Shown here in pieces: positions 2,454 to 56,894 of a stretch of DNA of 64,000 bases. The notes below the pieces were generated by a model, which was not told the origin of the DNA, ran no database searches, and saw only the letters and a list, made by a program, of their open reading frames with translations. Numbering within the stretch: the first letter of the stretch is position 1; every line of letters starts with the position of its first letter. The stretch lies in the NCBI RefSeq assembly GCF_003991155.1, contig NZ_CP031294.1. One strand, 5' to 3'. The stretch comes from Escherichia coli. Its GTDB lineage: Bacteria; Pseudomonadota; Gammaproteobacteria; Enterobacterales; Enterobacteriaceae. Made by a program: the position numbers and the translations under genes.

Positions 2454-3206
2454 TTAATCTTTTAGGTATAAACCTACTGGAGTTCTTGTTTTGCGGGAGA
2501 TGATAAGTACGATAAATTTCTGAACGTTAACTTGCACTTTGTTTGGGAGCCAAGAGCTTAACTCTGCATCAAGCAACAATCCTCTGTTCCACGGCAAAAA
2601 TCCGGTTTCTTTCCCCATCCCGTACTCACCTAACACATCTTCGAACGTTTCTGTTTTGGCATTGTATATACGCACATCGCCGGTTCGCATGAGAGGCCCT
2701 GCCCAGATCTTAGCACCAGGAATGGTTTGTGTATCGTCGCAGACTAAATGCTCATACCAATGAAGAAGAAAGAGATAGGTACGGTGACACAATCCTCGCT
2801 GACGACGCTCTCTGACAGTTTCGACACCAGCTACCTGGTAACATTCGATCTCATTACCGTCTTCAACAAAACTATATTCACGCAGAGCTATCCTACCAGC
2901 GATCGTATTTTTGTTTTCGTCCAGAAGCCCGGACTGGAGCACCTCTTTGATAATCTCTTCTTCAGGGGCATCTTCATCCGCTCGATCTAAGATGAATTCG
3001 CTCAGGTCGCCTTGGTCGCGCGCACCTACACGTTCCATAGAGACATACAGGCAAATGTCATCTTCTGGTTCAATGATTTCAATTTCTGAGATTTTATAGA
3101 GGTAGGCTTCATTGATAAGAAAGCCAAAACGAACAACACGAGTCTCCCCTTTATGAGGAAACTCGCTTAGATCTTTTGAATATGCGCTATCTAGTGTAGG
3201 AGCCAT
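2454..3206 (-). CDS. hypothetical protein
   Basis: 250 aa ORF, no recognised motif. Confidence 0.45.
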   Translation of the reverse strand: MAPTLDSAYSKDLSEFPHKGETRVVRFGFLINEAYLYKISEIEIIEPEDDICLYVSMERVGARDQGDLSEFILDRADEDAPEEEIIKEVLQSGLLDENKNTIAGRIALREYSFVEDGNEIECYQVAGVETVRERRQRGLCHRTYLFLLHWYEHLVCDDTQTIPGAKIWAGPLMRTGDVRIYNAKTETFEDVLGEYGMGKETGFLPWNRGLLLDAELSSWLPNKVQVNVQKFIVLIISRKTRTPVGLYLKD

Positions 3207-3798: not shown

Positions 3799-4131
3799 TC
3801 AGTTCAGGTGCCCCCACTCACACAGCCTTTCACCTATCGTATTGTGGATAAGCAACTGTCGCTCCGTTTCCTCAGTCATAAAATCCTCTCTACTCACATA
3901 GATAGGATTTGCAGCATCGCAGAATAGCACGCCTGGAGCCTGCGTCTTAATCACGCACCCATTTATCAAGCAGCTCGCGATGAACACCAGAGGCATCTTT
4001 TTGCCGCACTTCATTAACCGTTTCATTTTTGACATCCACTGTGCTTTGAAGTCGTTTTCTGTCTTCCTGTTTTGCCTTCTCTTCCATTGCTCGTCGCGCC
4101 GCATTTCCGCCCATCGTGTAAGCGCCGACAA
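3799..4131 (-). CDS. candidate o-spanin-like lipoprotein (true start probably internal, near 4026)
   Basis: ORF in alternate frame overlapping the 3' end of the preceding TM protein gene; internal MKRLMKCGKKMPLVFIASC resembles a lipoprotein signal with lipobox. Confidence 0.3.
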   Translation of the reverse strand: MSALTRWAEMRRDEQWKRRQNRKTENDFKAQWMSKMKRLMKCGKKMPLVFIASCLINGCVIKTQAPGVLFCDAANPIYVSREDFMTEETERQLLIHNTIGERLCEWGHLN

Positions 4132-4198
4132 GAACGAAAAGAACGGCAGCCAGCGTAATCAAAGCAACTTTTAGCTTTGTCATCAGGCTGCCTAGCAT
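3947..4198 (-). CDS. candidate i-spanin-like protein (N-terminal TM helix, charged C-terminal part)
   Basis: 83 aa; hydrophobic N-terminus LKVALITLAAVLFVLVGAY followed by charged region; directly downstream of putative endolysin. Confidence 0.35.
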   Translation of the reverse strand: MLGSLMTKLKVALITLAAVLFVLVGAYTMGGNAARRAMEEKAKQEDRKRLQSTVDVKNETVNEVRQKDASGVHRELLDKWVRD

Positions 4199-8400: not shown

Positions 8401-9460
8401 CGGAAGCAGACCTCGCTGCTGCGCTGGCCTGTTCAGTGGCTTCGCCAGCCTTCGTTGTGGCTGTTGAAGCAGACGATGCGGCACTTTCTGCCGATTTTCC
8501 GGCGGCGGTGGCACTGGCTGAGGCCTGCCCGGCACTTGTTGACGCGGCACTGGCAGACGACGCAGCCGCTGTTTTTGAGCCTGCCGCAGCTGAGGCACTC
8601 TGTGCTGCTGCCGTCTCAGAAGACTTAGCGTTCGTCTCGGACGTTTTTGCCGCCTTCGCGGAATTGCCTGCCGCTGTTGCCGAGGAGGCTGCACTACTGG
8701 CGCTCAAGGATGCGTTCGTTTCTGATGATTTCGCTGCCTCTTTTGAGGCCGCCGCATCCCGGACTGAGGTGGCAGCTTCTGACGCTTTCGTGGTCGCGGT
8801 GGATGCAGAAGTGGCTGCTGATTGTTGTGACGCTGCGGCATTCGTTTCAGATTTTTTCGCAGCAGTTGCACTCGCACTTGCGGCACTTTGTGAGGATGCC
8901 GCAGCGGATGCACTTTGAGACGCTTGAGAGGCTTTTTCTCCAGCGGTATTGGCGCTTTCTGCTGCTGCGGCAGCACTGGCCGCCGCCTCACGAGCTTTGT
9001 CGCCAGCAGCATCAATCGCGTCAGTGTTATTTTTATACCACTCAACGTTTTCGTTGTGCTCGTTGACGATCTGCATTAGCGGCTTAACGGTTACTTCTGT
9101 ACCGTCTTCACGCTCGATTGTCACCTCATCCAGAGCAGTCAACCAACTGCGCATAGACTTGGAATCAGCCGACATACGCGACATTAGTGCTGTAAAGCGC
9201 GCGCTAAACTGTGTTAAGTCGCCTTCATAGGTCGTAATGATTCGGCACGGAACCTCAGACTGAGTTTCGCCGGTATAAGGTTCTGAGAGAACAATATTCG
9301 TATCGCTTATTACGCGCTTGATCTCATACAGCTTATTGTCGGGGCCAATGACGATCATCCCCGGCAACACACCATTAGCTGTTACGTTCCAGGCTGTCCC
9401 TGCCCCAACCAGAGTATTGCTACCCTGTGTAAATGTGATAGTACCTTCCCTGTACCACAT
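5432..9460 (-). CDS. phage tail fibre protein (long, Ser/Ala-rich linker, repeated GNAATATKLQTAR fibre repeats)
   Basis: 1342 aa; low-complexity A/S/T region; three or more tandem ~50-aa repeats containing GNAATATKLQTAR typical of phage fibre proteins; located downstream of J-like gene. Confidence 0.85.
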   Translation of the reverse strand: MWYREGTITFTQGSNTLVGAGTAWNVTANGVLPGMIVIGPDNKLYEIKRVISDTNIVLSEPYTGETQSEVPCRIITTYEGDLTQFSARFTALMSRMSADSKSMRSWLTALDEVTIEREDGTEVTVKPLMQIVNEHNENVEWYKNNTDAIDAAGDKAREAAASAAAAAESANTAGEKASQASQSASAAASSQSAASASATAAKKSETNAAASQQSAATSASTATTKASEAATSVRDAAASKEAAKSSETNASLSASSAASSATAAGNSAKAAKTSETNAKSSETAAAQSASAAAGSKTAAASSASAASTSAGQASASATAAGKSAESAASSASTATTKAGEATEQASAAARSASAAKTSETNAKASETSAESSKTAAASSASSAASSASSASASKDEATRQASAAKGSATTASTKATEAAGSATAASQSKTAAESAATRAEAAADRAEEIAGAVAMEDASLTTKGVVKLSSAVDSTSESLAATPKAVKAANDNANSRVPSNRKVNGKALTADITLTPKDIGTLNSVTMSFSGGAGWFKLATVTMPQASSIVYIALIGGAGYNVGSPHQAGISELVLRAGNGNPKGITGALWKRTAVGLTNFAWINTSGDTYDIYVEIGNYATRVNIHWDCTANATVSIYTSPTYSASKPSSVTDGVVYTMYSSHQKPTPSDIGALPTTGGTVSGPLSVTGGLTGSLNGNASTATKLQTARSIGGVGFDGSANINLPGVNTTGNQNTTGNAATATKLQTARTIGGVSFDGTANINLPGVNTTGNQNTTGNAATATKLQTARTINGVSFDGSANISLSPANIGCPASPTGWLTTGSNGGAITTAQLVTLLQNNGAFNTKSWIARCAWAYANSATIPNSETGCGVIPLAGAVIEVFNNGSSSNNYTIRITTATTTSVSGALTNAEFIYVFNGTDYSPGWRRVYNTKNKPTASDVGALPLTGGTLSGGLTSSGEIISKYANGFRIAYGSFGFFIRNDGSNTYFMLTASGDTLGSWNGLRPITINNTSGAVSIGNGLNVTGGVNGSLNGNASTATKLQTARNINGVKFDGSGDININTLVSRGRVTALSGSAQGTAGIQMYEAYSNSYPTTYGNVLHMKGASAAGEGELLIGWSGTSGAHAPVFIRSRRDTTDAAWSAWAQVYTAKDSIPGVNTTGNQNTTGNAATATKLQTARKIAGVAFDGSADITLTAANLNAYTKTEVTNLLSSYVKSSALPSMTVRTSSVSGGDMGMSLSTFISHLKSNGAFSKSYWIGFGDAMGFNAGSINNITGFGAVELAESIIEVFNLPNGDYTIRLTTSHKADYGGVTNAILVYHYRSNRSPSGQWLKFAGTVGATSN

Positions 9461-28340: not shown

Positions 28341-29915
28341 TCACTCGTTCTCTTGAGTAGATGAGTCCCCATTCCCTCGGGGTTGATCTTGCCCGCTTTC
28401 TTGGGCTGCACCACGATCATAAGTAAGTACTGACTTATTTTCAAGGGTATTTAGATCATTTTTTGGAGGAAAATTCAAGAGATCTTTATCAAATTCCTTT
28501 TTCATCGCCTCAGTAATGTTCGGGAAAATCTTCTCAATAAGCATTTCCATCTGGTGACGACGTACAGAGTCCGGTGCCTGAAGTAATGACAGTTTCTCGG
28601 CAACAGAAAATTCATCAGTAAGGCCACGAATATCGAAACTTTCTGGATATGCAATTAAAGAGTGGTCTTCGTCCAGATCTACCCCCATCCATTTCGCAAC
28701 CAGTAGCATGATTTGGCGTTCAGCCCTTTCCAGACGCTCTGCTTTTGTGACAAGCAAGCTATTTACACGCTGGAAGTCATACATTTTTGCGGCACCAGAT
28801 GAATTATCGATTCCCTGTGCGTTGTCCTGCTTCGTTCGCTCACCAGCTACACCAACTGAATGGTAGATTTCGTTAATCACCGTCTTAATCGTAGTGATGA
28901 TCATCTGAGCTTGTTTCGGGTCTGGTGACAGATAAAACGGCTGGTTTCCACCTTCAGAATCGTAGGTGAAGACTCGCTTTGTGCCCATTTCAAGCACTTT
29001 AGTGTGGTTTTCATCACCAGGTAAAAGCGACTGTACCGGTATAGCCAACTGGCTAAATGTCTGATCCTGAATAATGGCATCAAGGTTTGACAGATAGTTT
29101 GCAACCGCACGATCAAGATAAGCGATATCATCGATCAACGATGGGCTGAAATACGGTGATTCACTTTCTCCAATACAATCAACAGGAAACACAGGAACTA
29201 CGCCGAGATTATGCTCACCGCTATCCTCTAAAATAACTTTTGCCTGACGGCGACCTGCTCCACCAGCGCCCTTCTTCACTTCCTCACGGAACAGATACCA
29301 CTCGTTTTGTGTCCACAGACGATAACGTTGGTATTCCTGACCTGTAGAAGTAAAAGGATCTGCGTCATCACGAGCGACTTCCACAATTAACGCCCACAAC
29401 ATATTCCCGTCGTCGTCCCATGCCACATCCAGCATTTGCTGAGGTGAAATCCAGTAGGCGTAGGCGCGAGCATCTTTCTTTTTCTCGTCAGCTACTGACT
29501 CAACATCACCACTCATCGTGCTATCGACAACAACCCATATGCGACCGTAAATAGACGACTGCAAATCAATAGCGGCCATAAATGAGTCAATAGAGGCATT
29601 CTGGCGAGTCGCACGTTTCCAGAAATTGCGGATCTGCTCTGGTGCCTCTTCGATATTTCTATGAATGTCTTCTTTAAAGAGATATTTGTTGATGAGGTTT
29701 ACCACCTCACGAGTGTGGTTGAAGCGATAAGCACGTTCAACTCGCTCCTTAAACTCCTGATCTCCCTCTTTAAAGTAACGAAAGATATTGTCTGTAAACC
29801 AACCACGCCCGCCAGCGTAAGTGCTGGCGAGGAAGTCCCAATGTTCTTTTTTCTTTTCGTATTCCGGGTGGCGTCGCGCCACCAGATCCTTAATTTGTTT
29901 GTCGTTCAATTCCAT
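28341..29915 (-). CDS. portal protein
   Basis: 524 aa, immediately downstream of large terminase. Confidence 0.7.
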   Translation of the reverse strand: MELNDKQIKDLVARRHPEYEKKKEHWDFLASTYAGGRGWFTDNIFRYFKEGDQEFKERVERAYRFNHTREVVNLINKYLFKEDIHRNIEEAPEQIRNFWKRATRQNASIDSFMAAIDLQSSIYGRIWVVVDSTMSGDVESVADEKKKDARAYAYWISPQQMLDVAWDDDGNMLWALIVEVARDDADPFTSTGQEYQRYRLWTQNEWYLFREEVKKGAGGAGRRQAKVILEDSGEHNLGVVPVFPVDCIGESESPYFSPSLIDDIAYLDRAVANYLSNLDAIIQDQTFSQLAIPVQSLLPGDENHTKVLEMGTKRVFTYDSEGGNQPFYLSPDPKQAQMIITTIKTVINEIYHSVGVAGERTKQDNAQGIDNSSGAAKMYDFQRVNSLLVTKAERLERAERQIMLLVAKWMGVDLDEDHSLIAYPESFDIRGLTDEFSVAEKLSLLQAPDSVRRHQMEMLIEKIFPNITEAMKKEFDKDLLNFPPKNDLNTLENKSVLTYDRGAAQESGQDQPRGNGDSSTQENE

Positions 29916-35281: not shown

Positions 35282-36841
35282 ATGACTGTTCGGATTGTAT
35301 CTAACGCAGTAAATGCGCTTATTTCTGGCGCAGATGACAAGGTAAAGCAACTGGTGCAGCAAATGTTGAGCTACGAAGTCGAGACTGGCGACTGGAAGGG
35401 CACAAGCACGATGTTCAACTGGAGTAAAAACTCGTTCCCTGCTGGCTTTGCCAAGCCTGTAGCGGCGAACTTGAACAAGGCGGGCATCAAATGTGTTCAT
35501 ATCCGCAAAGACAAAGCCCCGGCGCTTGGTAAACCAAATCCTGCGGTTAACCCATTCCCATACAATCCTGATTATGCGTATCAGGATCAGACTGTGGAAA
35601 CACTGGTTCGAGAGGGAATGATGATTGCGCAGATCGCTACTGGTGGCGGGAAATCTAACGTTGCCTGCAAAGCAGCTGCACGTATCGGTCGAATGACATT
35701 ATTTTTAACAACCCGCTCTGTTCTGATGTTTCAAATGGCCGAAAACTTCCAGAGATCCATCGACTACCGCGCCGAAAATGGCGAACCGTGGTTAAAAGAC
35801 CAAAAGGTTGGAGTCATTGGCTCGGGTGAGTTCCAGGTATCACGACATATCAACGTCGCTACAGTTCAAACTCTTGCAAGTTTCCTCGAAGAACCACCAC
35901 GCGATGCAACACCAGATAAGAAAAGCTACCACCTCAAACGTCGGGAGTTGGTGAAACGCTTCCTTTCAAGTGTCTCTCTTCTTATTCTGGAAGAGGCGCA
36001 TGAGTCTTCAGGCTCAAATTTCTATGACATCGCCAGATTATGTGTGAACGCAGACTATCGTCTGGCGCTTACAGCCACGCCGTTCATGAAGGATTCGACG
36101 GAAGCCAACATGCGCCTGATGGCGGTGGCCGGGCGAATTGAAATTAAAGTCACAGAAAAGTACCTGATTGATCGAGGCATTCTGGCAAAGCCGTACTTCC
36201 TTTATCATAAAGTTGCCTACAAGCCAGACGAGGCCAGAATCAAGGCCGAACTTGCCAACAAACACCTCAATTTTAGAGTTGGTATGAGCACCGCCTACCA
36301 AAAGGCTTATCAGTTGGGGATCGTGTATAATTTGGGACGTAACGAGGCCATAGTGCGCGAGGCATTGCTTTATAAGCAACATTCACTCAACTGCATGACT
36401 CTGGTTCGTCTTAAACGCCACGGGCAAATCCTGATGGAGATGATGAAGGAGTCAGGTCTTAAAGTTGATTTCATCTATGGGGAATCTAACCAGACGACAA
36501 GGCAAGCAAAGCTGAATAGTTTAGCGTCTGGTGAAATAGATGTTTTAATAGGCTCGACTATTCTGGATGTTGGTGTTGATGTGCCAAGCGTTGGTGCGGT
36601 CATTCTTGCTGGTGGTGGGAAAGCAGAAGTTGAAATGAGACAGCGTGTCGGTCGTGGCTTACGAGCCAAAAAAAATCAGGCAAACGTGTGTTTTATCACC
36701 GATTTCATTGACATTAGCAACAAATACCTGTTGTCTCACTCTTATGAGCGAAAACACATCATCGACACCACACCTGGCTTTGCAGAAGGTGTATTGCCTA
36801 TTGATGGAGCATTCGATTTTGGAGTTCTGAAACGAGATTAG
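35282..36841 (+). CDS. superfamily 2 helicase (DEAD/DEAH-like, ResIII-type)
   Basis: Walker A ATGGGKS, motif II LILEEAH, motif III LTATP, motif VI QRVGRGLR. Confidence 0.85.
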   Translation: MTVRIVSNAVNALISGADDKVKQLVQQMLSYEVETGDWKGTSTMFNWSKNSFPAGFAKPVAANLNKAGIKCVHIRKDKAPALGKPNPAVNPFPYNPDYAYQDQTVETLVREGMMIAQIATGGGKSNVACKAAARIGRMTLFLTTRSVLMFQMAENFQRSIDYRAENGEPWLKDQKVGVIGSGEFQVSRHINVATVQTLASFLEEPPRDATPDKKSYHLKRRELVKRFLSSVSLLILEEAHESSGSNFYDIARLCVNADYRLALTATPFMKDSTEANMRLMAVAGRIEIKVTEKYLIDRGILAKPYFLYHKVAYKPDEARIKAELANKHLNFRVGMSTAYQKAYQLGIVYNLGRNEAIVREALLYKQHSLNCMTLVRLKRHGQILMEMMKESGLKVDFIYGESNQTTRQAKLNSLASGEIDVLIGSTILDVGVDVPSVGAVILAGGGKAEVEMRQRVGRGLRAKKNQANVCFITDFIDISNKYLLSHSYERKHIIDTTPGFAEGVLPIDGAFDFGVLKRD

Positions 36842-36843
36842 TT

Positions 36844-37122
36844 ATGAGTGAAAAGAAAACAACTTACTGTCAGGTAGCATTGTCTGATAAGGCCAATGAC
36901 AAACTTGGAAAGTTTCAAGTGAAACTAAAAGAAAAAAATATCAAAATGTCTAAGGCTGAAGTCATAAATACCATTCTGGAACAATTGACAATGGCCGACT
37001 TTGACAAGGTTATATCTTCTGTCGGGGCTTCCGCTAAGACTCGTGAGAAAATCATGCGTATCTATGAGAACTCTAATATGACAAAGGAAGATCTCAAAAC
37101 GCTATTAAGCAGATTAAAATAA
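36844..37122 (+). CDS. small protein, possible ribbon-helix-helix DNA-binding protein
   Basis: 92 aa, start 3 nt after helicase stop (coupled); RHH assignment tentative. Confidence 0.4.
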   Translation: MSEKKTTYCQVALSDKANDKLGKFQVKLKEKNIKMSKAEVINTILEQLTMADFDKVISSVGASAKTREKIMRIYENSNMTKEDLKTLLSRLK

Positions 37123-37148
37123 TCACGCTATCAATTAGGGAGACAAAG

Positions 37149-37613
37149 ATGAAGTCTCCCATACTGTTCACTTTCTGTTCTAAAACTATCATGAAATACT
37201 CGCTTCTCCCTCTACTAACGTTACCAGTGTTGATGCTTGCCGCGTGCCAATCACACCCAATATCAATCCATGACGCCAAACCAGCACCGCAGGCCAAAGT
37301 GTTCAAGTATCAAAGCGCAGCGCCAGCTACGTTGGTGGTAATGAGAGACACAGGTTTTGTAGGAGCTGGATGTGATGCTTCCATTTTCATCAACGGCGAA
37401 ACTGTCGCAAAACTGGCTACAGGCGAAAAAGCGACTTTCCATTTAAATGCCGGAGAATTAATTGTGGGTGCATCTCTTGAAGGTGCAGGTTTATGTGCTC
37501 TAAACCCCGCTCGTCAAGAGCGAGAAACGACTCTGAAGAATGGAGACACAAAAGCGTTCAGGGTGTTTACCAGCAATTCTGGTGACATCGACATTCTGCC
37601 AACAACTCTGTGA
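37149..37613 (+). CDS. putative lipoprotein
   Basis: Signal peptide with lipobox-like LAAC (MKYSLLPLLTLPVLMLAAC). Confidence 0.55.
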   Translation: MKSPILFTFCSKTIMKYSLLPLLTLPVLMLAACQSHPISIHDAKPAPQAKVFKYQSAAPATLVVMRDTGFVGAGCDASIFINGETVAKLATGEKATFHLNAGELIVGASLEGAGLCALNPARQERETTLKNGDTKAFRVFTSNSGDIDILPTTL

Positions 37614-37617
37614 TGAC

Positions 37618-38142
37618 ATGACAACCAAAGATATTACCTACGGTATCCAAGCTGAACTCTGGCCGCGAGATTACACTAACGTTGAAAAACTACTGATGTT
37701 CTGGCGCAGAGAACAAATTCCTGTAAGGGTCACTCTCGAAGATGGCCAGGCGTTTTGCATGTACGTTTATGGCCTCATGCCATCTCGTAACAAAGTTGAC
37801 CTTTGCCCAGCCCCTTTTGACAAAGAAAATCGTATAAGGCTCCCACTTGAACGCATTAGTACAATTGAATCAGGTGTGGTTGACAGTATCGCTCACGATT
37901 TCAAAGGTCGACTAACAGTTCACCCTGATTATGTCGATAATCGGCCATCACGCCGCGATTTTTTTGCAATTTGCAACCAAGCCTACAAAGCAAACAAATC
38001 TATAAGGGTGTACATGGCGGATGGCCGTGAAATTGAGGGGGTGTCAGCAGGCGCAGATGCTTGTCAGGTTACACTACGTGTCGAGAACGGTAGAAAAATA
38101 GTTGTTTTGTTCGATTGGGTTGAACGAATTTTGCCTTTTTGA
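37618..38142 (+). CDS. hypothetical protein
   Basis: Start set at in-frame ATG just after upstream stop; ORF track 37540..38142. Confidence 0.4.
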   Translation: MTTKDITYGIQAELWPRDYTNVEKLLMFWRREQIPVRVTLEDGQAFCMYVYGLMPSRNKVDLCPAPFDKENRIRLPLERISTIESGVVDSIAHDFKGRLTVHPDYVDNRPSRRDFFAICNQAYKANKSIRVYMADGREIEGVSAGADACQVTLRVENGRKIVVLFDWVERILPF

Positions 38143-38145
38143 GTT

Positions 38146-38454
38146 ATGAAATCGATATTGTTACCACCATTATTTTTACTTTGCTCAGTTGCGGCAAATG
38201 CAATGGACTATAAGCCTGTCATTCAGTCGCTGATGAATGACGTGTGCTCAACGTCTCAGAATGTATCAGTTTGCATGTATCAATTTTCGGCAGCCGTAAA
38301 AGCAGGAAAAGCGATAGGCGAGAATGTGGAACTGTGTAAGAAAGTGGCAAATGAAGAACGGGCAATGTTGGATTGCGAATCTAGCGAGTCATCGGCACAG
38401 TTCGTTGATGCGCTATTTGACACCAATCGTAAGGCTGTAGAGTCTGTTCAATAA
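38146..38454 (+). CDS. small secreted protein (signal peptide)
   Basis: MKSILLPPLFLLCSVAANA signal-peptide-like N-terminus; 102 aa. Confidence 0.5.
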   Translation: MKSILLPPLFLLCSVAANAMDYKPVIQSLMNDVCSTSQNVSVCMYQFSAAVKAGKAIGENVELCKKVANEERAMLDCESSESSAQFVDALFDTNRKAVESVQ

Positions 38455-38645
38455 ATCTATAAGGTTAATAACCGGCTAAGTCCGGTTATTATTTTTCACA
38501 TCACTTCTTTATATCTACAAATCAAATAACCTAAATATATATAAGGTCTAAAGCCGCAATCAATTATTTATTTAGGGAACACCTTCGACGATCTCGCTTT
38601 TATTTCTAGGACTTTCATCCCTGCAAAAAATTTAAAAAAAAACAC

Positions 38646-38738: not shown

Positions 38739-39389
38739 ATGGCTAACATTATCATTTCTAAAAAATCCATCATTGAAGCTGCTTCCATTGTATCCGATGA
38801 ACTGCGCGAAAAAGCAGATCTGGCAACTCAAACATATAACGAACATTATAAAAATGGTACGCACACTAAAGCAGACAAAGCAAATATGCAAGCTGCGACC
38901 ACTAAACTTGCTTACTTCATCAACAACGTCGTAAACGCAGTAGAAGACGAAAAATTATGCTCTGTTTTCTACTATGCGATTAAAGCAAGCAAACAAGCGC
39001 CAGAAGTATTTTTCCGTGATGCAATGACTAATAGTTATTCTCTGGAAAAACTGGTTTATCTGGTTAAATCAATTAAATCTGGTAAATGCGTTTATTCCAT
39101 CGCTGATATGTCTGGATCTCGTGTATTCGCTTTAATCGATATGATTAACGACGAGATCGACACGTTCACTAATGGCGCTGTTTTCGATTTAATGAATGAA
39201 GCTAAAAAAGCGTGTGAAATTAAATTGGACGCTGGTTATACTCAAGCCAACCAGTTGATCAATCTTTGCGAACGTCTTGGACTTGTTGAAAAAGTCAAAG
39301 GAGCTGGGAGCGCGAAAGCTGGTACTCAGCAATATCGCTTCATTAAAAATGATTTCTACAATTATTTAGCTGATGCTTTCAAAGCGTAA
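38739..39389 (+). CDS. hypothetical protein (AT-rich)
   Basis: 216 aa ORF with upstream promoter candidate and downstream hairpin. Confidence 0.55.
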   Translation: MANIIISKKSIIEAASIVSDELREKADLATQTYNEHYKNGTHTKADKANMQAATTKLAYFINNVVNAVEDEKLCSVFYYAIKASKQAPEVFFRDAMTNSYSLEKLVYLVKSIKSGKCVYSIADMSGSRVFALIDMINDEIDTFTNGAVFDLMNEAKKACEIKLDAGYTQANQLINLCERLGLVEKVKGAGSAKAGTQQYRFIKNDFYNYLADAFKA

Positions 39390-43630: not shown

Positions 43631-43666
43631 CCTTAAACAACATGTTTTCTTGATGGTGTTATTATC
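43631..43666 (-). promoter_or_regulatory. family-2 promoter/operator-like box
   Basis: ccttaaacaacatgttttcttgatggtgttattatc. Confidence 0.6.
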
Positions 43667-43792
43667 GCAATAACGCACAGGTGAAAAAGGATTTTATTCC
43701 GGTGAATGTGGTTTTGGCAGTGAGTTTTCAGGTTCAGTACCGAGTACACTTTTTACATTATTCTGATTTAGTGGCCGAAGGTGGCTGGTGGG

Positions 43793-44125
43793 CAGAATAA
43801 TCCTCTCCCCGAAAACCTACTGAAATCGATTGTGACCCGTTGGCTGTCTGGCACAATTACGCTGTAACTGGGCATTCAGAGGGAATCCAGCGGTAAGTAA
43901 GTTCGCCTGCACGTGAGCGCCTCTCTTCTTCCCGCACATTACAGGTGGGTAGCCGCAACTCTCCCTCTCGCTATACCGGTACGCCGCCGTTCCTGAACCG
44001 GCATCGAGCCTTCTCCCGAAATCCACACAGGCAACTCGACCGTTTCCCTGAAAACCTCCAGCCGTTCCCCGAAGGCAACCCAGCCGTTTCTGTAGCGGGA
44101 TGCAACCTTTTCCCTGTATGGACCG
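43793..44125. repeat. array of about 7 iteron-like repeats (C(C/T)GTTTCCC(T)GAA-type)
   Basis: ctccccgaaaacc, cttctcccgaaatcc, ccgtttccctgaaaacc, gccgttccccgaagg, gccgtttctgtagc, ccttttccctgtatgg, gccgttcctgaacc read directly. Confidence 0.5.
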
Positions 44126-44229
44126 AAGGCTGACCGTAGGGGTGTTACGGGGGATAAAATCAGGAGTTGAATAAATACGAAAAAGGAGGCGACACCCCTC
44201 CTTCTCTCCCCACTTATACATACCTGGCT

Positions 44230-44830
44230 TCTTCGCTATACATGTTGTGTTTTATTCGTGTTTTATCTGTCTCAACCTCTCTATGGACGTTAATACTCAC
44301 TCCTTCCAGAACGTTCTATACGGCGACTAATTCTGTTGGTGAATTGGGTGTGTTGTTCTCTCTGTCGGTGTATGTGGTTTCGTTCGTTTTGCGGTGGTTC
44401 TTCTATGGGGTGTTCTCGTCGTTTTGGTGATTGTTCTTCTCCGTGTATGGAGTAATGGCAGGTGGGCGATTCCTTTCGTTATTGTGTTTGAGTTGTTTGT
44501 CTGGAGTGCGTGAAGGGCTTTTGTAGTTATTCGTGTGTTGGGTAATGGCGTTTCCCGTGATTGTTCTGTTTCGTGTCTTTTGGGATTGAGAGAAACCTTG
44601 CGGTTACAGGCTTCGTTGGGGTTTCAGTGATTCTGGTGTTTCTTCGCTGTTTGGGTAATGGCGTGTCGTGGGTATCGCGCGTATGGAAGTTTCGAATTGC
44701 CTGTGAAAGTTAGGTTGGTTGTCCGGTAGCCTGAGAAGAAGAGGTGGGTCTTTTCGGTAGCCTGCCATAAAGAGGTTGGTTGTTTTTGGTAATGGCATAT
44801 GTGTTATTTAGTTGTTTTGTTATGCCTGAA
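44230..44830. repeat. strongly strand-skewed (G+T-rich on plus strand) non-coding tract with degenerate ~60-bp repeats (ggtaatggc..., cggtagcctg...)
   Basis: Base composition and repeated words read directly; ORFs in the tract are low-complexity and rejected. Confidence 0.5.
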
Positions 44831-45036
44831 AATAAGTTGTTTATATGGTTATGTAACGCAACGGGAACGATTTTGAGCGTGTGTTTTTGTTGGTAGTGTG
44901 TTGGGTCGTCTGTGGTGAAAATTGGACGCTGTGGCGCTGTCTGCTGCGTAGAATTACGGGTATAAGCAGTGATGTGTGAAAACGTCAATTTTTTAGACCA
45001 AATCGGGTGAAAGCGTTGATGTTTCGTTGATCTGTT

Positions 45037-45074
45037 ATTCAGTTGTTTTCTTATTGGTATAAACAACTGTAACC
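45037..45074. promoter_or_regulatory. family-2-related box with split arms (cagttgttt-N12-aaacaactg)
   Basis: Read directly. Confidence 0.45.
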
Positions 45075-45176
45075 TATTGATATTTAAGGATGTGATTCCA
45101 GGCATGGAAGGGGAGTAGTGGCGATCAACGGATTCTTATAGAAAAGAATCAAATTGTGACCGCCATTATCAATGTT

Positions 45177-46417: not shown

Positions 46418-48451
46418 TTACTTAACCTGGTGGCCTGGTTTAGCACCAGCATCCGGGCTTAACAGGAAGATATCTTTCCCGCCGGGGCCAGCAGCCATCA
46501 CCATGCCTTCGGAGATACCGAAGCGCATTTTACGCGGAGCCAGGTTAGCCACCATAATGGTGTGACGACCAATCAGTGCCTGTGGGTCTGGATAAGCAGA
46601 ACGGATGCCTGAGAAGACATTACGCTTTTCACCACCGAGATCCAGTGTCAGACGCAGCAGTTTGTCAGAACCTTCGACAAACTCCGCGTTTTCAATCAGC
46701 GCCACACGCAGGTCAACTTTGGCGAAGTCGTCAAAGGTGATGGTTTCCTGAATCGGGTCGTCAGCCAGTGGGCCAGTTACCGGTGCAGCTGTGGCTTTCA
46801 CTTCTTCTTTGGATGCTTCCACCAGTGCTTCCACCTGTTTCATATCGATACGGTTATACAATGCCTTGAACGGATTCACTTTATGGCCCAGCAGCGGTTG
46901 CTGGATACCATCCCAGGTCAGTTCTGTATTCAGGAATGCTTCTGCACGTTCAGTCAGTTTCGGCAGTACCGGTTTCAAGTACGTCATCAGCACGCGGAAC
47001 AGGTTAATGCCCATAGAGCAAATCGCCTGCAGATCGGCATCGCGTCCTTCCTGCTTCGCCACCACCCACGGAGCCTGTTCATCGACATATCGGTTAGCCA
47101 GGTCAGCCAATGCCATGATTTCACGGATAGCTTTACCAAATTCGCGGCTTTCCCATGCTTCGCCAATCACTTCAGCGGCATCAGTAAAGGTTTTGTACAG
47201 TTGCGGGTCAGCCAGTTCGCTTGCCAGCACGCCGTCAAAACGCTTGTTGATAAAGCCTGCATTACGGGAGGCCAGGTTAACCACTTTGTTCACGATATCG
47301 GCATTCACGCGCTGAACGAAATCCTCCAGGTTGAGATCGATATCATCAATGCGCGAAGAGAGTTTCGCAGTGTAGTAGTAACGCAGGCTGTCGGCGTCAA
47401 AATGATTCAGCCAGGTGCTGGCTTTAATAAAGGTGCCGCGAGACTTGGACATCTTCGCGCCGTTCACCGTCACATAGCCGTGAACAAACAGGTTGGTCGG
47501 CTTGCGGAAGTTGCTGCCTTCCAGCATGGCAGGCCAGAACAGGCTGTGGAAGTAAACAATATCTTTACCGATGAAGTGGTACAGCTCGGCTGTGGAGTCT
47601 TTCTTCCAGTATTCATCGAAGCTGGTGGTATCGCCGCGCTTGTCGCACAGATTCTTGAAGGAACCCATGTAGCCAATCGGCGCGTCCAGCCAGACGTAGA
47701 AATATTTGCCCGGCGCGTTCGGAATTTCAAAACCGAAGTAAGGCGCATCGCGGGAGATATCCCACTGTTGCAGGCCGGATTCAAACCACTCCTGCATTTT
47801 GTTCGCCACCTGCTCCTGCAACGCACCGCTGCGGGTCCATGCCTGCAACATTTCGCTGAAAGAGGGCAGATCAAAGAAGAAGTGTTCGGAATCACGCATT
47901 ACCGGGGTAGCGCCAGAAACCACCGATTTCGGCTCGATCAATTCAGTCGGGCTATATGTTGCGCCGCAGACTTCACAGTTATCGCCGTATTGATCTGGCG
48001 CTTTACATTTCGGGCAGGTGCCTTTCACAAAACGATCCGGCAGGAACATGCCTTTTTCCGGGTCGTACAACTGAGAGATAGTGCGGTTTTTAATAAAACC
48101 GTTCTCTTTCAGGCGAGTATAGATAAGCTCAGACAGCTGGCGGTTCTCTTCGCTGTGCGTCGAGTGATAGTTGTCATAGCTGATGTTAAAGCCTGCGAAA
48201 TCAGTCTGGTGTTCCTGACTCATTTCGCCAATCATCTGCTCCGGTGTGATACCAAGCTGCTGTGCTTTCAGCATGATCGGCGTACCGTGGGCATCGTCGG
48301 CACAGATGAAATTAACCTCGTGGCCGCGCATTCGCTGGTAACGAACCCAGACATCAGCCTGGATGTGCTCCAGCATATGGCCGAGGTGGATTGAGCCGTT
48401 AGCGTACGGCAGCGCGCACGTCACCAGAATTTTCTTCGCGACTTGGGTCAT
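46418..48451 (-). CDS. metG: methionine--tRNA ligase
   Basis: Near-full-length match by recall to enterobacterial MetG: HIGH-type motif [16 protein letters not shown], zinc knuckle CPKC...C..C, C-terminal tRNA-binding domain; start set at MTQVAKK (ATG 48451), the ORF-track start is an upstream artefact. Confidence 0.95.
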
Positions 48452-48608
48452 AGTAGGCATTACTTCTTTGTAGTGAAAAGGGGCTTGATAGTAACAAAAT
48501 GGCCTTATGTCTGCCATGTGATAACAGCATTTCTCATAAATGATTAAATGTCGTAGCTGGAGTACACTACAAGGCGACAATTGCGCAAATTAAAATAAAG
48601 GAGACGGG

Positions 48609-49709
48609 ATGAGCGAGTCCAAATCGCCGGATGCCCTGAGAGCAATGGTAGCCGGTACGCTGGCTAATTTTCAGCACCCAACCCTGAAACACAACCTGAC
48701 TACGCTTAAAGCGTTACACCATGTTGCGTTGATGGATGACACACTGCATGTCGAACTAATCATGCCTTTCGTGTGGAATAAGCCTTTTGAAGACCTGAAA
48801 GAGCAATGTAGTGGTGATCTGCTCCGTATCACTGGCGCAAAGGCTATTGACTGGAAGCTGTCGTACAACATTGCCACGCTTAAGCGCGTCAAAAACCAAC
48901 CAGGCATTAATGGCGTTAAGAACATTATCGCCGTCAGCTCAGGCAAGGGCGGCGTGGGTAAATCCTCCACGGCGGTAAACCTGGCACTGGCGTTGGCTGC
49001 TGAAGGTGCGAAAGTTGGTATTTTGGATGCCGATATCTATGGTCCATCAATTCCAACCATGCTGGGCGCGGAAAACCAACGTCCAACCTCACCTGACGGT
49101 ACTCACATGGCACCTATCATGTCTCATGGCCTGGCAACCAACTCTATTGGTTATCTGGTCACCGACGACAATGCAATGGTGTGGCGTGGACCGATGGCCA
49201 GCAAGGCGCTGATGCAGATGTTGCAGGAAACTCTATGGCCTGATCTGGACTATCTCGTTCTCGATATGCCGCCGGGCACTGGTGATATTCAGTTGACGCT
49301 GGCGCAGAACATTCCTGTAACTGGTGCGGTTGTGGTAACTACGCCGCAAGACATCGCGCTGATCGATGCGAAGAAAGGCATTGTGATGTTCGAAAAAGTC
49401 GAAGTGCCGGTACTGGGTATCGTCGAAAACATGAGTGTGCATATTTGCAGTAACTGCGGTCATCACGAGCCAATTTTTGGCACCGGTGGCGCACAGAAAC
49501 TGGCCGAGAAATACAACACGCAGTTGTTAGGCCAAATGCCACTTCATATCTCTCTTCGTGAAGATCTGGATAACGGAACACCAACCGTTATTAGTCGTCC
49601 AGATAGCGAATTTACGGCTATTTATCGTGACCTCGCAGATCGCGTTGCCGCCCAAATGTATTGGCAAGGTGAAGTAATACCTGGCGAAATCGCATTCCGC
49701 GCAGTGTGA
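48609..49709 (+). CDS. mrp: Fe-S cluster carrier ATPase Mrp/ApbC
   Basis: Walker A SGKGGVGKS, CxxC motif (CSNCGHH), conserved divergent arrangement with metG as in enterobacterial chromosomes. Confidence 0.93.
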   Translation: MSESKSPDALRAMVAGTLANFQHPTLKHNLTTLKALHHVALMDDTLHVELIMPFVWNKPFEDLKEQCSGDLLRITGAKAIDWKLSYNIATLKRVKNQPGINGVKNIIAVSSGKGGVGKSSTAVNLALALAAEGAKVGILDADIYGPSIPTMLGAENQRPTSPDGTHMAPIMSHGLATNSIGYLVTDDNAMVWRGPMASKALMQMLQETLWPDLDYLVLDMPPGTGDIQLTLAQNIPVTGAVVVTTPQDIALIDAKKGIVMFEKVEVPVLGIVENMSVHICSNCGHHEPIFGTGGAQKLAEKYNTQLLGQMPLHISLREDLDNGTPTVISRPDSEFTAIYRDLADRVAAQMYWQGEVIPGEIAFRAV

Positions 49710-49745: not shown

Positions 49746-50135
49746 CTACATCACGGGACAATCATCAAACTCGCCACTTCTTGCGTCGTTGATAATGTGA
49801 GTGATCACACCAAACACGGCATTGCTGCCCGTGCATCCATCGTCATCCTTTGGCAATGCTTCCTTCTTACCGGTTCTTAAATCCTCCAGATGCTGACGTG
49901 GGTACTTCCGGTATCTTTTTACGCGATATTCCCCATCCAGAGCGCATACAAGCAGAGAACCATCAACCGGGGTAAGTGAGGAATCGACCACCAGCAATGC
50001 ACCCTGTAATATTCCCTCACGATGATGACTATCAGCTGCCCTCATGAAGTAGGTCGCTGAAGGATGTCTAATTATCTGCTGATCAAGAGAAATACGGCTC
50101 TCAGCATAATCCGCCGCAGGAGAAGGGAAGCCCAT
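49746..50135 (-). CDS. UmuD'-like (pre-cleaved UmuD / HumD-type) S24 peptidase-fold protein
   Basis: Begins M-GFPSPAADY, i.e. at the position of the UmuD self-cleavage product; lacks the N-terminal arm; divergent C-terminal tail. Confidence 0.7.
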   Translation of the reverse strand: MGFPSPAADYAESRISLDQQIIRHPSATYFMRAADSHHREGILQGALLVVDSSLTPVDGSLLVCALDGEYRVKRYRKYPRQHLEDLRTGKKEALPKDDDGCTGSNAVFGVITHIINDARSGEFDDCPVM

Positions 50136-50837: not shown

Positions 50838-52396
50838 ATGAAAATGACAAGTATTCAACAACGTGCAGAGCTTCATCGCCAGATCTGGCAAATTGCTAAC
50901 GATGTCAGGGGTTCAGTCGATGGATGGGATTTTAAGCAGTACGTTTTGGGCGCGCTTTTTTACCGTTTTATCAGCGAAAATTTTTCCAGTTATATTGAAG
51001 CCGGTGATGACAGTATCTGTTATGCGAAACTGGATGACAGCGTAATTACTGATGACATTAAAGACGATGCCATCAAAACTAAAGGCTACTTCATCTACCC
51101 CAGTCAGCTTTTCTGCAACGTAGCTGCGAAAGCAAATACTAATGACAGACTGAATGCAGATTTAAACAGCATCTTCGTTGCTATCGAAAGTTCTGCTTAC
51201 GGTTATCCTTCAGAAGCTGACATCAAAGGTTTGTTTGCTGATTTCGATACCACCAGTAACCGCCTGGGTAACACCGTTAAAGATAAAAATGCCCGCTTGG
51301 CTGCGGTTCTGAAAGGGGTTGAAGGGCTAAAACTTGGTGACTTCCATGAACATCAGATTGACCTGTTCGGTGACGCCTATGAGTTCCTGATTTCTAACTA
51401 TGCGGCGAATGCCGGTAAGTCCGGCGGCGAGTTCTTTACACCGCAGCACGTCTCTAAGCTGATTGCACAACTGGCTATGCACGGGCAGACCCACGTTAAC
51501 AAAATCTACGACCCGGCAGCAGGCTCCGGTTCGCTGTTGTTGCAGGCGAAAAAACAGTTTGATGACCATATCATCGAAGAAGGTTTTTTTGGTCAGGAAA
51601 TCAACCATACGACCTATAACCTGGCGCGTATGAACATGTTTTTGCACAACATCAACTACGACAAGTTTGATATCAAGCTGGGTAATACACTGACTGAGCC
51701 GCACTTCAGAGATGAAAAACCGTTTGATGCCATCGTTTCTAACCCGCCGTATTCGGTGAAATGGATTGGCAGCGATGACCCGACGCTGATTAACGATGAA
51801 CGTTTTGCCCCGGCTGGCGTTCTGGCCCCCAAATCCAAAGCTGACTTTGCGTTTGTATTACATGCGCTGAACTATCTTTCGGCCAAAGGTCGCGCTGCGA
51901 TTGTCTGCTTCCCAGGCATTTTTTACCGTGGCGGCGCGGAGCAGAAAATCCGTCAGTATCTGGTCGACAATAACTATGTCGAAACCGTGATTTCACTGGC
52001 ACCGAATCTGTTCTTTGGCACCACTATTGCCGTCAATATTCTGGTGCTGTCTAAACATAAAACGGATACCAAAGTTCAGTTTATTGATGCCAGCGAACTG
52101 TTCAAAAAAGAGACTAACAACAACATTCTGACCGATGCTCATATCGAACAGATTATGCAGGTATTTGCCAGCAAGGAAGATGTTGCTCATCTGGCGAAAT
52201 CTGTTGCGTTTGAGACTGTTGTCGCGAATGACTATAACCTGTCGGTGAGCAGCTATGTGGAAGCGAAAGATACTCGCGAAATTATCGATATCGCTGAGCT
52301 GAATGCTGAGCTGAAAACCACGGTCAGCAAAATCGACCAGTTGCGTAAAGATATTGATGCGATTGTTGCTGAGATTGAAGGTAGCGAGGTACAGGC

Positions 52397-52400
<4 letters not shown>
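50838..52400 (+). CDS. hsdM: Type I restriction-modification N6-adenine DNA methyltransferase subunit
   Basis: NPPY motif ([10 protein letters not shown]), AdoMet-binding motif, 520 aa; operon with hsdS and hsdR. Confidence 0.93.
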
Positions 52401-53656
<1,256 letters not shown>

Positions 53657-53777
53657 TTGACCATTGCTACCGACCGGATCACCTTAACATCCGGTCTATA
53701 TAGAGACTATTTTTTACACGCCGGAAGTCGCCCTTAAAGCCCTTCCGGCCCTTGCCAGACGGCACAAAGGATGCGCT

Positions 53778-56700
53778 ATGACTCATCAGACACACACCAT
53801 TGCTGAATCCAATAACTTTATCGTTCTTGATAAGTACATCAAAGCCGAGCAAACAGGCGACAGCTACCAGAGCGAATCGGACCTGGAACGTGAACTGATT
53901 CAGGATCTGCGGAATCAGGGCTATGAATTTATTTCCGTAAAATCTCAGTCGGCGATGCTGGCCAACGTTCGGGAACAGCTTCAGAGCCTCAATGGTGTGA
54001 TGTTTAATGACAGCGAGTGGCGGCGCTTCACGGAGCAGTATCTGGACAACCCCAGCGATGGTATTCTGGATAAAACCCGTAAAATCCATATCGACTATAT
54101 CTGCGACTTTATTTTTGACGACGGGCGACTTGAGAACATCTATTTGATAGATAAAAAGAATCTCATGCGCAATAAGGTGCAGATTATCCAGCAGTTTGAA
54201 CAGACGGGTTCTCATGCTAACCGTTATGACGTCACGATCCTGGTTAATGGTTTACCGCTGGTGCAAATCGAACTAAAAAAACGCGGGGTGGCGATTCGTG
54301 AGGCTTTCAACCAGATACATCGTTACAGTAAAGAGAGTTTTAACAGCGAAAATTCCCTGTTTAAGTATCTGCAACTGTTTGTCATTTCTAACGGCACCGA
54401 TACCCGTTATTTTGCCAACACGACAAAGCGCGATAAAAACAGTTTTGACTTCACCATGAATTGGGCGAAATCAGACAACACGCTGATTAAAGACCTCAAA
54501 GACTTTACCGCTACCTTTTTCCAGAAACATACTCTGCTGAATGTTCTGGTGAACTACAGCGTTTTTGACAGTAGTCAGACGCTACTGGTGATGCGACCGT
54601 ACCAGATTGCCGCCACCGAGCGCATTCTGTGGAAAATTAAGAGTTCCTTTACAGCGAAGAACTGGTCAAAACCGGAAAGCGGTGGGTATATCTGGCATAC
54701 TACCGGTTCTGGTAAAACCCTCACCAGCTTTAAAGCCGCGCGTCTGGCAACAGAGCTGGACTTTATTGATAAAGTCTTCTTTGTGGTCGACAGGAAAGAC
54801 CTCGATTACCAGACCATGAAGGAATATCAGCGTTTTTCGCCAGACAGCGTCAACGGCTCGGAAAATACCGCAGGCCTTAAACGAAATCTGGATAAGGACG
54901 ATAACAAAATTATCGTCACTACTATTCAGAAACTCAATAACCTGATGAAAGCAGAAAGCGACCTGCCTGTATATAATCAGCAAGTGGTGTTTATATTTGA
55001 TGAATGCCACCGCAGCCAGTTTGGAGAAGCGCAGAAAAACCTGAAGAAGAAATTCAAACGCTATTATCAGTTTGGTTTTACCGGCACCCCTATTTTCCCG
55101 GAAAACGCTTTAGGCTCAGAAACGACCGCCAGCGTATTTGGTCGTGAATTGCATTCGTATGTAATTACCGATGCGATTCGTGATGAAAAAGTGCTCAAAT
55201 TCAAGGTGGACTACAACGATGTGCGGCCACAGTTTAAATCTTTAGAGACAGAAACCGACGAGAAAAAACTGAGTGCGGCTGAAAATCAGCAGGCATTTCT
55301 TCATCCCATGCGTATACAGGAAATTACGCAATATATTCTGAATAACTTCCGCCAGAAGACCCACCGTACTTTCCCAGGTTCCAAAGGCTTTAATGCCATG
55401 CTGGCAGTGAGTAGCGTGGATGCCGCGAAAGCCTATTACGCGACGTTTAAACGGTTACAAGAGGAAGCAGCTAATAAATCGGCTACCTATAAACCGCTGC
55501 GTGTTGCAACAATCTTCTCCTTTGCCGCCAATGAAGAACAAAATGCCATTGGTGAAATTTCCGATGAAACTTTTGATACCAGCGCAATGGACAGCAGTGC
55601 TAAAGAGTTTCTTGACGCTGCAATTCGTGAGTATAACAGCTATTTTAAAACTAACTTCAGCACCGACAGTAACGGTTTTCAGAACTACTATCGTGATTTA
55701 GCCCAACGGGTTAAAAATCAGGATATCGATCTGTTAATTGTCGTTGGGATGTTTTTAACCGGCTTCGACGCTCCAACATTGAACACGCTATTCGTCGATA
55801 AAAACTTGCGTTTTCACGGCCTGATGCAGGCATTCTCCCGTACCAACCGCATTTATGACGCTACTAAAACCTTCGGTAACATCGTCACTTTTCGGGATCT
55901 GGAACGCTCAACCATTGATGCCATAACGCTGTTTGGTGATAAAAATACTAAAAATGTGGTGTTAGAAAAGAGTTATGCTGAGTATATGGAAGGCTTTACA
56001 GATGCTGCCACTGGTGAAGCTAAACGCGGCTTTATGGCAGTAGTTTCAGAACTGGAACAACGGTTCCCTGACCCTGCCAGTATTGAAAGTGAAAAACAGA
56101 AGAAAGACTTCGTAAAACTGTTTGGTGAATACCTGCGTGCCGAGAACATCCTGCAAAACTATGATGAATTTGCCACGCTGAAAGCCCTGCAACAAATCGA
56201 TCTTAGCGATCCTGTTGCGGTAGAAAAATTCAAAGCAGAACATTATGTGGATGATGAAAAGTTCGCTGAATTGCAAACAATTCGTCTCCCTGCTGAACGC
56301 AAGATTCAGGATTATCGTTCTGCCTATAACGATATTCGCGACTGGCAGCGCCGTGAGAAAGAAGCTGAGAAAAAAGAGAAATCAACCACTGACTGGGATG
56401 ACGTAGTTTTTGAGGTCGATTTGCTGAAGTCTCAGGAAATAAACCTGGATTATATCCTTGGACTGATTTTCGAACACAACAGACAAAATAAAGGCAAGGG
56501 CGAAATGATCGAAGAGGTCAAACGCTTAATTCGTTCAAGCCTGGGGAACCGGGCGAAAGAGGGCCTGGTGGTCGATTTTATTCAGCAAACGAACCTGGAT
56601 GATTTACCAGACAAAGCCAGTATCATTGAGGCATTCTTTACGTTTGCTCAACGCGAACAGCAACGTGAAGCAGAAGCATTGATAAAAGAAGAAAATCTCA

Positions 56701-56894
56701 ATGAAGAGGCGGCGAAACGCTATATTCGCACGTCTTTAAAACGCGAATACGCCACCGAAAATGGCACAGAATTAAACGAGACATTACCAAAACTTAGTCC
56801 GTTAAACCCGCAATATAAAACGAAAAAACAGACCGTTTTCCAGAAAATCGTCACGTTTATTGAAAAGTTCAAAGGAGTAGGTGGGCAGATATAG
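53778..56894 (+). CDS. hsdR: Type I restriction enzyme endonuclease/translocase subunit (EcoR124I HsdR-like)
   Basis: 1038 aa; SF2 helicase motifs (TGSGKT, DECHR), N-terminal nuclease domain; sequence recalled as very close to EcoR124I HsdR. Confidence 0.93.

Follow-up and report, generated by a model that had tools for sequence, protein, structure and literature searches.

A FljA-family gene among genes for exported proteins on an SSU5-type phage-plasmid of Escherichia coli

Three closely spaced genes at 37149..38454

We analyzed a stretch of 64,000 nucleotides (nt) from Escherichia coli (contig NZ_CP031294.1 of RefSeq assembly GCF_003991155.1), hereafter called the window, which belongs to an extrachromosomal phage-plasmid of the SSU5/pSLy3 type. 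The locus of interest, 37149..38454, consists of three open reading frames (ORFs) on the + strand with gaps of just 4 and 3 nt, placed as in an earlier note on this DNA. That note had described a lipobox lipoprotein and a signal-peptide protein flanking a cytoplasmic ORF, and this description is borne out by the lipobox rule, an A-x-A cleavage site and conservation among homologues. What it missed is the identity of the middle ORF, a FljA-family repressor whose gene belongs to the core of the element and forms the conserved anchor of the locus. The features of the locus are the following (aa, amino acids):

37149..37613 (or 37191..37613), + strand: ORF1, lipoprotein gene with a lipobox, phrog_890
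37618..38142, + strand: ORF2, FljA-family gene, 174 aa, cytoplasmic, PF03614 and phrog_1444
38146..38454, + strand: ORF3, predicted small secreted (periplasmic) protein, 102 aa, signal peptide, phrog_9536
38466..38497, + strand: intrinsic-terminator-like hairpin with a T-run, 12 nt past the ORF3 stop

Because ORF2 starts 4 nt past the ORF1 stop and lacks a Shine-Dalgarno sequence, it is likely to be translationally coupled to ORF1. The hairpin downstream of ORF3 (-12.6 kcal/mol, z = -4.2; none of 200 shuffled sequences was equally stable) marks the end of the transcription unit. Export signals are otherwise near-absent from the 51 annotated coding sequences in positions 1-50000: a lipobox is found in ORF1 alone, and a signal-peptide-like N-terminus only in ORF3 and a small membrane protein (3947..4198). 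The clustering of such signals at this locus is therefore real.

ORF2 is a full-length FljA homologue

ORF2 matches the Pfam family PF03614 (Flag1_repress, "repressor of phase-1 flagellin") over residues 5-171 of 174 with 282.4 bits (cut-off 24, E 1.5e-84), belongs to phrog_1444 (1.9e-100) and has no signal peptide, in line with the earlier description. It is 36% identical over its full length to Salmonella FljA (P0135, so named by NCBI; E 1.2e-25). Both proteins share the N-terminal motif DI[TS]YG..E.WPRDY and the C-terminal motif P-S.RDFF.IC...IRVY..DG....G...G..A.QV.......FDWV.RI. The family is tiny, with just 26 proteins at E ≤ 0.001 among 1.84 billion representative proteins searched with HMMER.

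FljA reportedly acts post-transcriptionally by binding the leader of the fliC mRNA, as Yamamoto & Kutsukake and Aldridge et al. are said to have found in 2006. Based on its homology, we predict that ORF2 is an RNA-binding translational repressor. The fljA gene of Salmonella is transcribed together with fljB, and its product prevents expression of fliC (PMC3378880). The gene upstream of ORF2 encodes a lipoprotein and not one of the alternative flagellins (fljB, flkA, fljB-z66) downstream of which such repressors lie, and none of the 123 features annotated on the near-identical plasmid NZ_CP172196 is a flagellin gene.

Four separate searches aligned the C-terminal residues ~120-162 of ORF2 weakly with the Sm1 motif of Hfq, each below significance: Pfam Hfq gave 6.8e-4 (below its cut-off), TIGR02383 0.073 and hhalign E 0.049, and the sole PDB profile matches of ORF2 were Hfq-like proteins of M. 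jannaschii (E 0.42). This similarity, although below every threshold, hints at an Sm/Hfq-like domain at the C-terminus, as would suit an RNA-binding protein. Conservation within the FljA family is highest in the C-terminal part (37978..38142 in the window, residues ~120-174 of ORF2), which coincides with the Sm1-like stretch, and the N-terminal segment IPVRVTLEDGQ..C.YV.G of the family resembles a second Sm1-like copy. FljA may be a tandem Sm-like RNA binder. We know of no solved structure for the FljA family.

ORF1 is a predicted outer-membrane lipoprotein

ORF1 encodes 154 aa if translated from the ATG at 37149, which is the RefSeq start and has AGGGAG just upstream, or 140 aa from the in-frame ATG at 37191. 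Since most of 18 aligned homologues are 140 aa long, the latter is the start supported by homology. The N-terminus reads MKYSLLPLLTLPVLMLAAC followed by QSH, and contains a lipobox L-A-A-C (...VLMLAAC) with Gln at position +2. From either start it satisfies the PROSITE PS51257-type rule, which asks for a basic n-region, an uncharged hydrophobic stretch and [LVI][ASTVI][GAS]C with the Cys within the first 35 residues: the lipobox Cys is Cys19 (short start) or Cys33 (long start). In the alignment of 18 sequences both C19 and K2 are invariant. The lipobox together with the conserved Cys places ORF1 among the bacterial lipoproteins, in agreement with its match to the "lipoprotein" family phrog_890 (6.4e-52). 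Pattern rules and conservation, from which export is deduced, confirm ORF1 as a putative lipoprotein of the outer-membrane type.

The mature part is a beta-sandwich of ~120 aa with two conserved Cys; the AlphaFold2 (AF2) model has seven strands and a predicted local distance difference test (pLDDT) score of 65. Its fold matches are generic only (the extracellular domain of PepT1, the C-terminal domain of AlgF, TssJ and DUF4352). An assignment to DUF2846 (PF11008) was rejected because the match reached 18.1 bits against a cut-off of 34.3 (E 0.0028) and covered residues 45-92 only; the literature lead for this family, Bd1399, is silent on function (PMC10792529). In the mature region the proportion of nonsynonymous differences (pN) is 0.115, compared with a proportion of synonymous differences (pS) of 0.73.

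ORF3 is a predicted small periplasmic protein

The N-terminus of ORF3, MKSILLPPLFLLCSVAANA followed by MDYK, combines a basic n-region with a hydrophobic core, whose mean Kyte-Doolittle value is 2.6, and with an A-N-A site. Residues 1-19 form the signal peptide, with predicted cleavage after A-N-A and a mature part of 83 aa. Homologues of ORF3 carry divergent signal sequences, for example MKPILLSSILLIIAPAVSA and MKAILLSSILLASSTAASA, of the same architecture: K2 is retained, as are the hydrophobic core and a site of the small-x-small type (VSA, ASA or ANA). We took as the mark of a Sec type-I signal peptide the succession of n-, h- and c-regions with small residues at -3/-1, conserved in kind and not in sequence, and this is what ORF3 shows, with a pN of 0.37 in the signal region vs 0.13 in the mature part. 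By this measure it is confirmed as a putative exported protein with a classical signal peptide.

In two homologues the site reads ANA followed by KDD, so that Lys and not Met follows the cleavage site. As these proteins nevertheless keep the N-terminal extension, Met20 is not the true start of ORF3. The phrog_9536 profile, which ORF3 matches with 5.8e-55, starts at Met20, and the Prokaryotic Genome Annotation Pipeline (PGAP) starts the gene at TTG 38158; both mask the signal peptide (38146..38205), and the PGAP start strips the basic n-region by removing Lys2. The AF2 model (pLDDT 85, with >90 in the mature region) shows a fold of three helices, which contains four invariant Cys and has no structural neighbor in the PDB.

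Comparison of homologues further showed that the signal-peptide codons of ORF1 and ORF3 change faster (pN 0.31-0.47) than their mature codons (pN 0.12-0.26), at a pS of ~0.75 throughout. ORF1 and ORF3 are real genes under purifying selection.

The locus lies on an SSU5-type phage-plasmid

The earlier note had placed the locus in a prophage, and this setting did not hold. Several circular E. coli plasmids of ~110 kb carry the locus region with 100% identity, and a survey of 5426 complete E. coli genomes gave 334 matching places, all 334 on plasmids, of 100-115 kb. Over positions 1-50000 the window differs from plasmid pGF66.1-B (NZ_CP172196) by three mismatches in 50 kb. This plasmid encodes a siphovirus-type structural module, RepA, a ParB-like protein, DnaE, DnaB and a primase, and further nrdAB, thyA, dfrA51, four tRNAs and a type I restriction-modification system. 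Because all matches lie on plasmids and a near-identical circular plasmid carries phage genes together with replication and partition genes, the element is an extrachromosomal SSU5/pSLy3-type phage-plasmid of ~110 kb and not an integrated prophage. The nearest named phage is Salmonella phage SSU5, with ~74% DNA identity across the region. Near-identity and synteny with complete circular plasmids assign the element to the SSU5-like phage-plasmids, namely the pSLy3 group of the SSU5 phage-plasmid community (PMC12429562, PMC7969092). SSU5-type elements are present in ~4% of complete E. coli genomes.

The FljA-like gene is a core gene found on plasmids from several host genera

In the same survey, the FljA-like gene occurred in 242 complete E. 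coli genomes, plasmid-borne in every case. As this count is on a par with that of the portal gene (236), the FljA-like gene is a core gene of the element, and almost all SSU5-type phage-plasmids carry it. The two differ in their diversity: the portal gene is at least 99% identical in 186 of 236 records, whereas the FljA-like gene reaches this level in 79 of 242 and is only 60-80% identical in 159, with mosaicism inside the gene. The FljA-like locus is a recombination hot spot within an otherwise clonal backbone. Mosaic FljA-like alleles that are 69-79% identical in DNA (37618..38142) are found on elements whose portal genes (28341..29915) are at least 99% identical.

A tblastn search of PLSDB detected the FljA-like gene on 830 plasmids, with hosts from Klebsiella (341), Escherichia (228), Enterobacter (92), Yersinia (62), Salmonella (60), Citrobacter (27), Cronobacter (10) and Shigella (6). 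Klebsiella pneumoniae, Y. pestis and Shigella are non-flagellate. Of the 830 carrier plasmids, 409 reside in these three genera (Klebsiella, Yersinia and Shigella), so that a flagellin for the repressor to act on is missing in about half of the carriers. The gene is constrained between hosts (ratio of nonsynonymous to synonymous substitution rates, dN/dS, 0.08-0.15), and two Klebsiella-borne copies differ with a pN of 0.175 vs a pS of 0.81.

Copies that are merely 36-45% identical still occur in SSU5-type synteny (L017 and L018; L numbers are our labels for related elements). In a neighbor-joining tree, Salmonella FljA forms a sister branch to all phage-plasmid copies; the idea that it is nested inside the phage-plasmid clade was rejected on this ground.

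Exported proteins adjoin the FljA-like gene in related elements

We compared the neighbors of the FljA-like gene in 15 related elements, including the window. In 14 of them the gene adjoining it codes for an exported protein, and these proteins represent three or more unrelated families:

ORF1-type beta-sandwich lipoprotein, + strand: window, SSU5, pMT1, L014
ORF1-type lipoprotein, - strand: two Klebsiella phages, L018
266-aa lipoprotein with Asp at +2: Cyrano, pSLy3, L012, L013
~196-aa signal-peptide protein overlapping the start of the FljA-like gene: L011, L016
118-aa signal-peptide protein: L006
Adjacent gene not exported, with a 151-aa lipoprotein gene one gene further: L017

Downstream of the FljA-like gene, ORF3-family proteins with four invariant Cys are encoded in the window, L005, L004, L013 and the very divergent element L018, and the other elements have none; this slot holds one of two subfamilies or nothing. 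The full trio recurs in L018, whose FljA-like copy is only 36% identical. Because exported neighbors occur across the 15 elements and the trio spans the deepest divergence sampled, the repressor has an old and recurrent association with exported proteins. In its behavior the locus is a hot spot at which genes for exported proteins are exchanged. The earlier note had regarded the exported proteins as cargo. The trio is nearer to backbone, with the lipoprotein kept on pMT1 of Y. pestis and the trio present in very divergent elements.

Three otherwise different neighboring exported proteins, the 266-aa lipoprotein (L003 592..1392), the 118-aa protein (L006 1077..1433) and the 151-aa lipoprotein (L017 2131..2586), appear to share the pattern L(L/E)DPD(A/S)..F ... 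(V)CG.(V/I)N.KN..G(G)Y(T)G. The pattern points to a domain that they have in common, for which no Pfam family scores above its cut-off.

Flanks of the locus and other features of the element

The locus is bordered by conserved genes on both sides:

35282..36841, + strand: DEAD/DEAH helicase, upstream and co-directional, conserved left flank
36844..37122, + strand: conserved 92-aa protein, upstream and co-directional, conserved left flank
38739..39389, + strand: conserved 216-aa protein (phrog_1513), conserved right flank

The left flank of helicase and 92-aa protein is also present in SSU5, pMT1, the Klebsiella phages and L018. In SSU5 and pMT1 (L002 ~2860..2920 and L019 ~2015..2073), a GC-rich hairpin followed by a T-run separates the 92-aa and lipoprotein genes. 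The corresponding region of the window (37123..37190) lacks this hairpin and instead has AGGGAG and the extra in-frame ATG. The boundaries of transcription units therefore vary among relatives.

Elsewhere in the window, 46418..49709 holds full-length copies of the housekeeping genes metG (methionine-tRNA ligase, - strand) and apbC/mrp (+ strand) in divergent orientation. Acquisition of apbC by such phage-plasmids has been noted before (PMC12429562), and we encountered no discussion in the literature of a metG copy on a phage-plasmid. An S24-peptidase (LexA/CI-type) repressor gene lies at 49746..50135 and a complete type I restriction-modification system (hsdM, hsdS, hsdR) at 50838..56894. The tail fiber is encoded by a single ORF of 1342 aa (5432..9460), and RefSeq splits the same sequence on the near-identical plasmid into a gene and a pseudogene. 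Finally, a region of ~1.5 kb (43650..45170) is without annotated genes on the near-identical plasmid in RefSeq and contains two - strand ORFs of 131-134 aa (43817..44221 and 44710..45105); two of the three differences between window and plasmid (43682 and 44128) fall inside it.

Interpretation of the locus

We propose, with a confidence that stays somewhat below even, that the locus is a conserved phage-plasmid module in which a FljA-family post-transcriptional repressor is co-expressed with envelope proteins and acts on a target that is not, or not only, host flagellin. By established rules, ORF1 would be lipidated at Cys19 and, with Gln at +2, be sorted by the Lol system to the inner face of the outer membrane. 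Likewise, ORF3 would be exported by Sec and cut after Ala19 to form a periplasmic three-helix fold with two disulfides. By homology to Salmonella FljA, ORF2 would bind the 5′ leader of a target mRNA and block its translation, while the co-expressed exported proteins would act at the envelope. Because copies on elements of Klebsiella, Y. pestis and Shigella are no less intact or constrained and the gene never stands beside flagellin, the conserved target is probably a flagella-independent mRNA. Judging from the distribution, this would be an mRNA present with or without host flagella, either element-encoded or a conserved host mRNA, and fliC mRNA would be no more than a further target where the host, like E. 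coli, is flagellated.

Several points weigh against this proposal. To our knowledge, repression of fliC is the only activity of the FljA family established by experiment, and occurrence in Klebsiella does not prove function there. The similarity of ORF2 to Hfq lies under all significance thresholds. No target RNA came to light: sequences resembling the fliC leader are absent from the window and from the leaders of ten FljA-like genes, where only chance-level matches were found, and an Rfam scan of the whole window returned no element. Pfam, NCBIfam and PADLOC searches with the three proteins and eight alternative neighbors gave no named functional family for the exported proteins.

The strongest alternative, which we consider possible but rather unlikely, is silencing of host flagellin: ORF2 would bind the host fliC leader and stop the synthesis of flagellin during residence or replication of the element, which would save resources and allow escape from flagellotropic phages and TLR5 recognition, with the exported proteins remodeling the surface further. 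The fliC leader is bound by FljA in Salmonella and by FlkB in E. coli, and it exists in E. coli, the host here. The full-length PF03614 match and the terminal motifs DI(T/S)YG..E.WPRDY and FDWV.RI common to ORF2 and Salmonella FljA agree with such a role, as does the presence of FljA-like repressors on other mobile elements, for example the pBSSB1-family linear plasmids; some RefSeq/GenBank records even name the gene "repressor of phase-1 flagellin". However, identity to Salmonella FljA is just 36%, the element lacks the alternative flagellin gene that accompanies every characterized FljA system, and about half of the carrier plasmids reside in non-flagellate genera, where the gene is intact and constrained. 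In addition, S. Typhi CT18 carries pHCM2 with a FljA-like gene (P0060) and is still typed H:d.

Superinfection exclusion, to which the earlier note had linked the exported proteins, appears improbable, and nothing we found ties these proteins to it. In such a scenario the lipoprotein, the periplasmic protein or both would block a receptor or DNA entry in the manner of T5 Llp and Cor, and the FljA homologue would be a bystander. The predicted exported location would suit this role, the genes flanking the FljA-like gene come from three or more unrelated families of exported proteins that replace one another between elements, and the locus is far more diverse than the structural genes (186/236 for portal vs 79/242 for the FljA-like gene at the 99% level), as is typical of conflict loci. 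On the other hand, PADLOC, Pfam and NCBIfam gave no assignment to any defense or exclusion family, PHROGs, PADLOC and Pfam returned no Llp/Cor-type match beyond the generic "lipoprotein", and the fold matches are generic beta-sandwiches. The lipoprotein is also under strong purifying selection and retained on Y. pestis pMT1. Moreover, a lipoprotein that masks the element's own receptor, as T5 Llp and Cor do, would be expected to vary in step with the receptor-binding protein, yet one lipoprotein allele (at least 99% identical; for example on NZ_CP107165, NZ_CP115378, NZ_CP081792 and NZ_JBSTQP010000003) is paired with distal tail-fiber segments that range from 100% identity to 25-59% coverage at 84-94% identity. 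Since the lipoprotein allele does not follow the tail-fiber allele, receptor masking matched to that fiber is weakened as an explanation; other forms of exclusion are unaffected by this comparison. Both flagellin silencing and exclusion are compatible with the module that we propose and need not be mutually exclusive with it.

That the signal peptides are artifacts of wrong start codons and the proteins cytoplasmic is highly improbable: PGAP begins ORF3 at TTG 38158, the phrog_9536 profile begins at Met20 and ORF1 has two candidate starts, but the N-terminal extension is kept in homologues without Met at position 20, hydrophobicity and an A-x-A site or lipobox persist in the signal regions although their sequences change rapidly, and the lipobox Cys lies within the accepted distance from either ORF1 start.

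Returning to the proposed module, a wider reading of the family, which we hold to be doubtful but worth stating, is that FljA proteins are primarily RNA-binding repressors of phage-plasmids, possibly tandem Sm/Hfq-like, with exported partners and a non-flagellin target, and that Salmonella FljA would be a domesticated chromosomal branch.

Significance and comparison with known systems

SSU5-type phage-plasmids are common in clinical Enterobacteriaceae, and their backbone genes are largely unstudied. If ORF2 silences flagellin, carriage of the element would alter motility, the expression of H antigen, sensitivity to flagellotropic phages and recognition by innate immunity. If it has a different conserved target, as the abundance in Klebsiella and Y. 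pestis suggests, a textbook regulator of phase variation would belong to a wider class of RNA-binding regulators on mobile elements.

Like ORF1, the small phage lipoproteins Llp of T5 and Cor of phi80, N15 and HK022 are predicted to sit in the outer membrane, facing the periplasm. This is an analogy only, as no similarity of ORF1 to them was found in sequence or fold, and ORF1 does not co-vary with the tail fiber. With T4 RegA, ORF2 would share the concept of a phage protein that represses translation via mRNA leaders, and with Hfq a weak Sm1 alignment over the C-terminal ~45 residues, none of it significant (0.00068 to 0.42, all below cut-offs).

Salmonella enterica FljA, encoded in the fljBA operon, resembles ORF2 in its full-length family match, terminal motifs and size (179 vs 174 aa). 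Unlike it, ORF2 neither follows a flagellin gene nor has a Hin-type switch, is borne by a phage-plasmid, is flanked by exported-protein genes and is common in non-flagellate hosts. FljA-family genes are likewise found on mobile elements in the pBSSB1-family linear plasmids (fljB-z66/fljA) and in the E. coli flk islet with FlkB. There, the repressor gene stands directly after an alternative flagellin gene, as for the fljA of the pBSSB1-family plasmid NZ_CP038609 (~35% identical to ORF2), whereas the element described here has no flagellin.

The closest counterparts are SSU5_121 and SSU5_122 of phage SSU5 and their equivalents on pHCM2, pSLy3 and pMT1. These orthologous pairs of lipoprotein and FljA-like genes occupy the same position, between the helicase and 92-aa genes and the 216-aa gene. 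They share ~80% protein identity with the pair in the window, and SSU5 and pMT1 lack ORF3. The sequences themselves are already in databases, and the SSU5 annotation reads "putative lipoprotein" and "putative repressor of phase 1 flagellin". Searches of the literature on SSU5, phage-plasmids and pHCM2 in combination with fljA, flagellin or motility retrieved no study of the pair. What is new here is a flagellin-less FljA homologue in the core of a phage-plasmid, its abundance in non-flagellate hosts and its constant adjacency to exported proteins.

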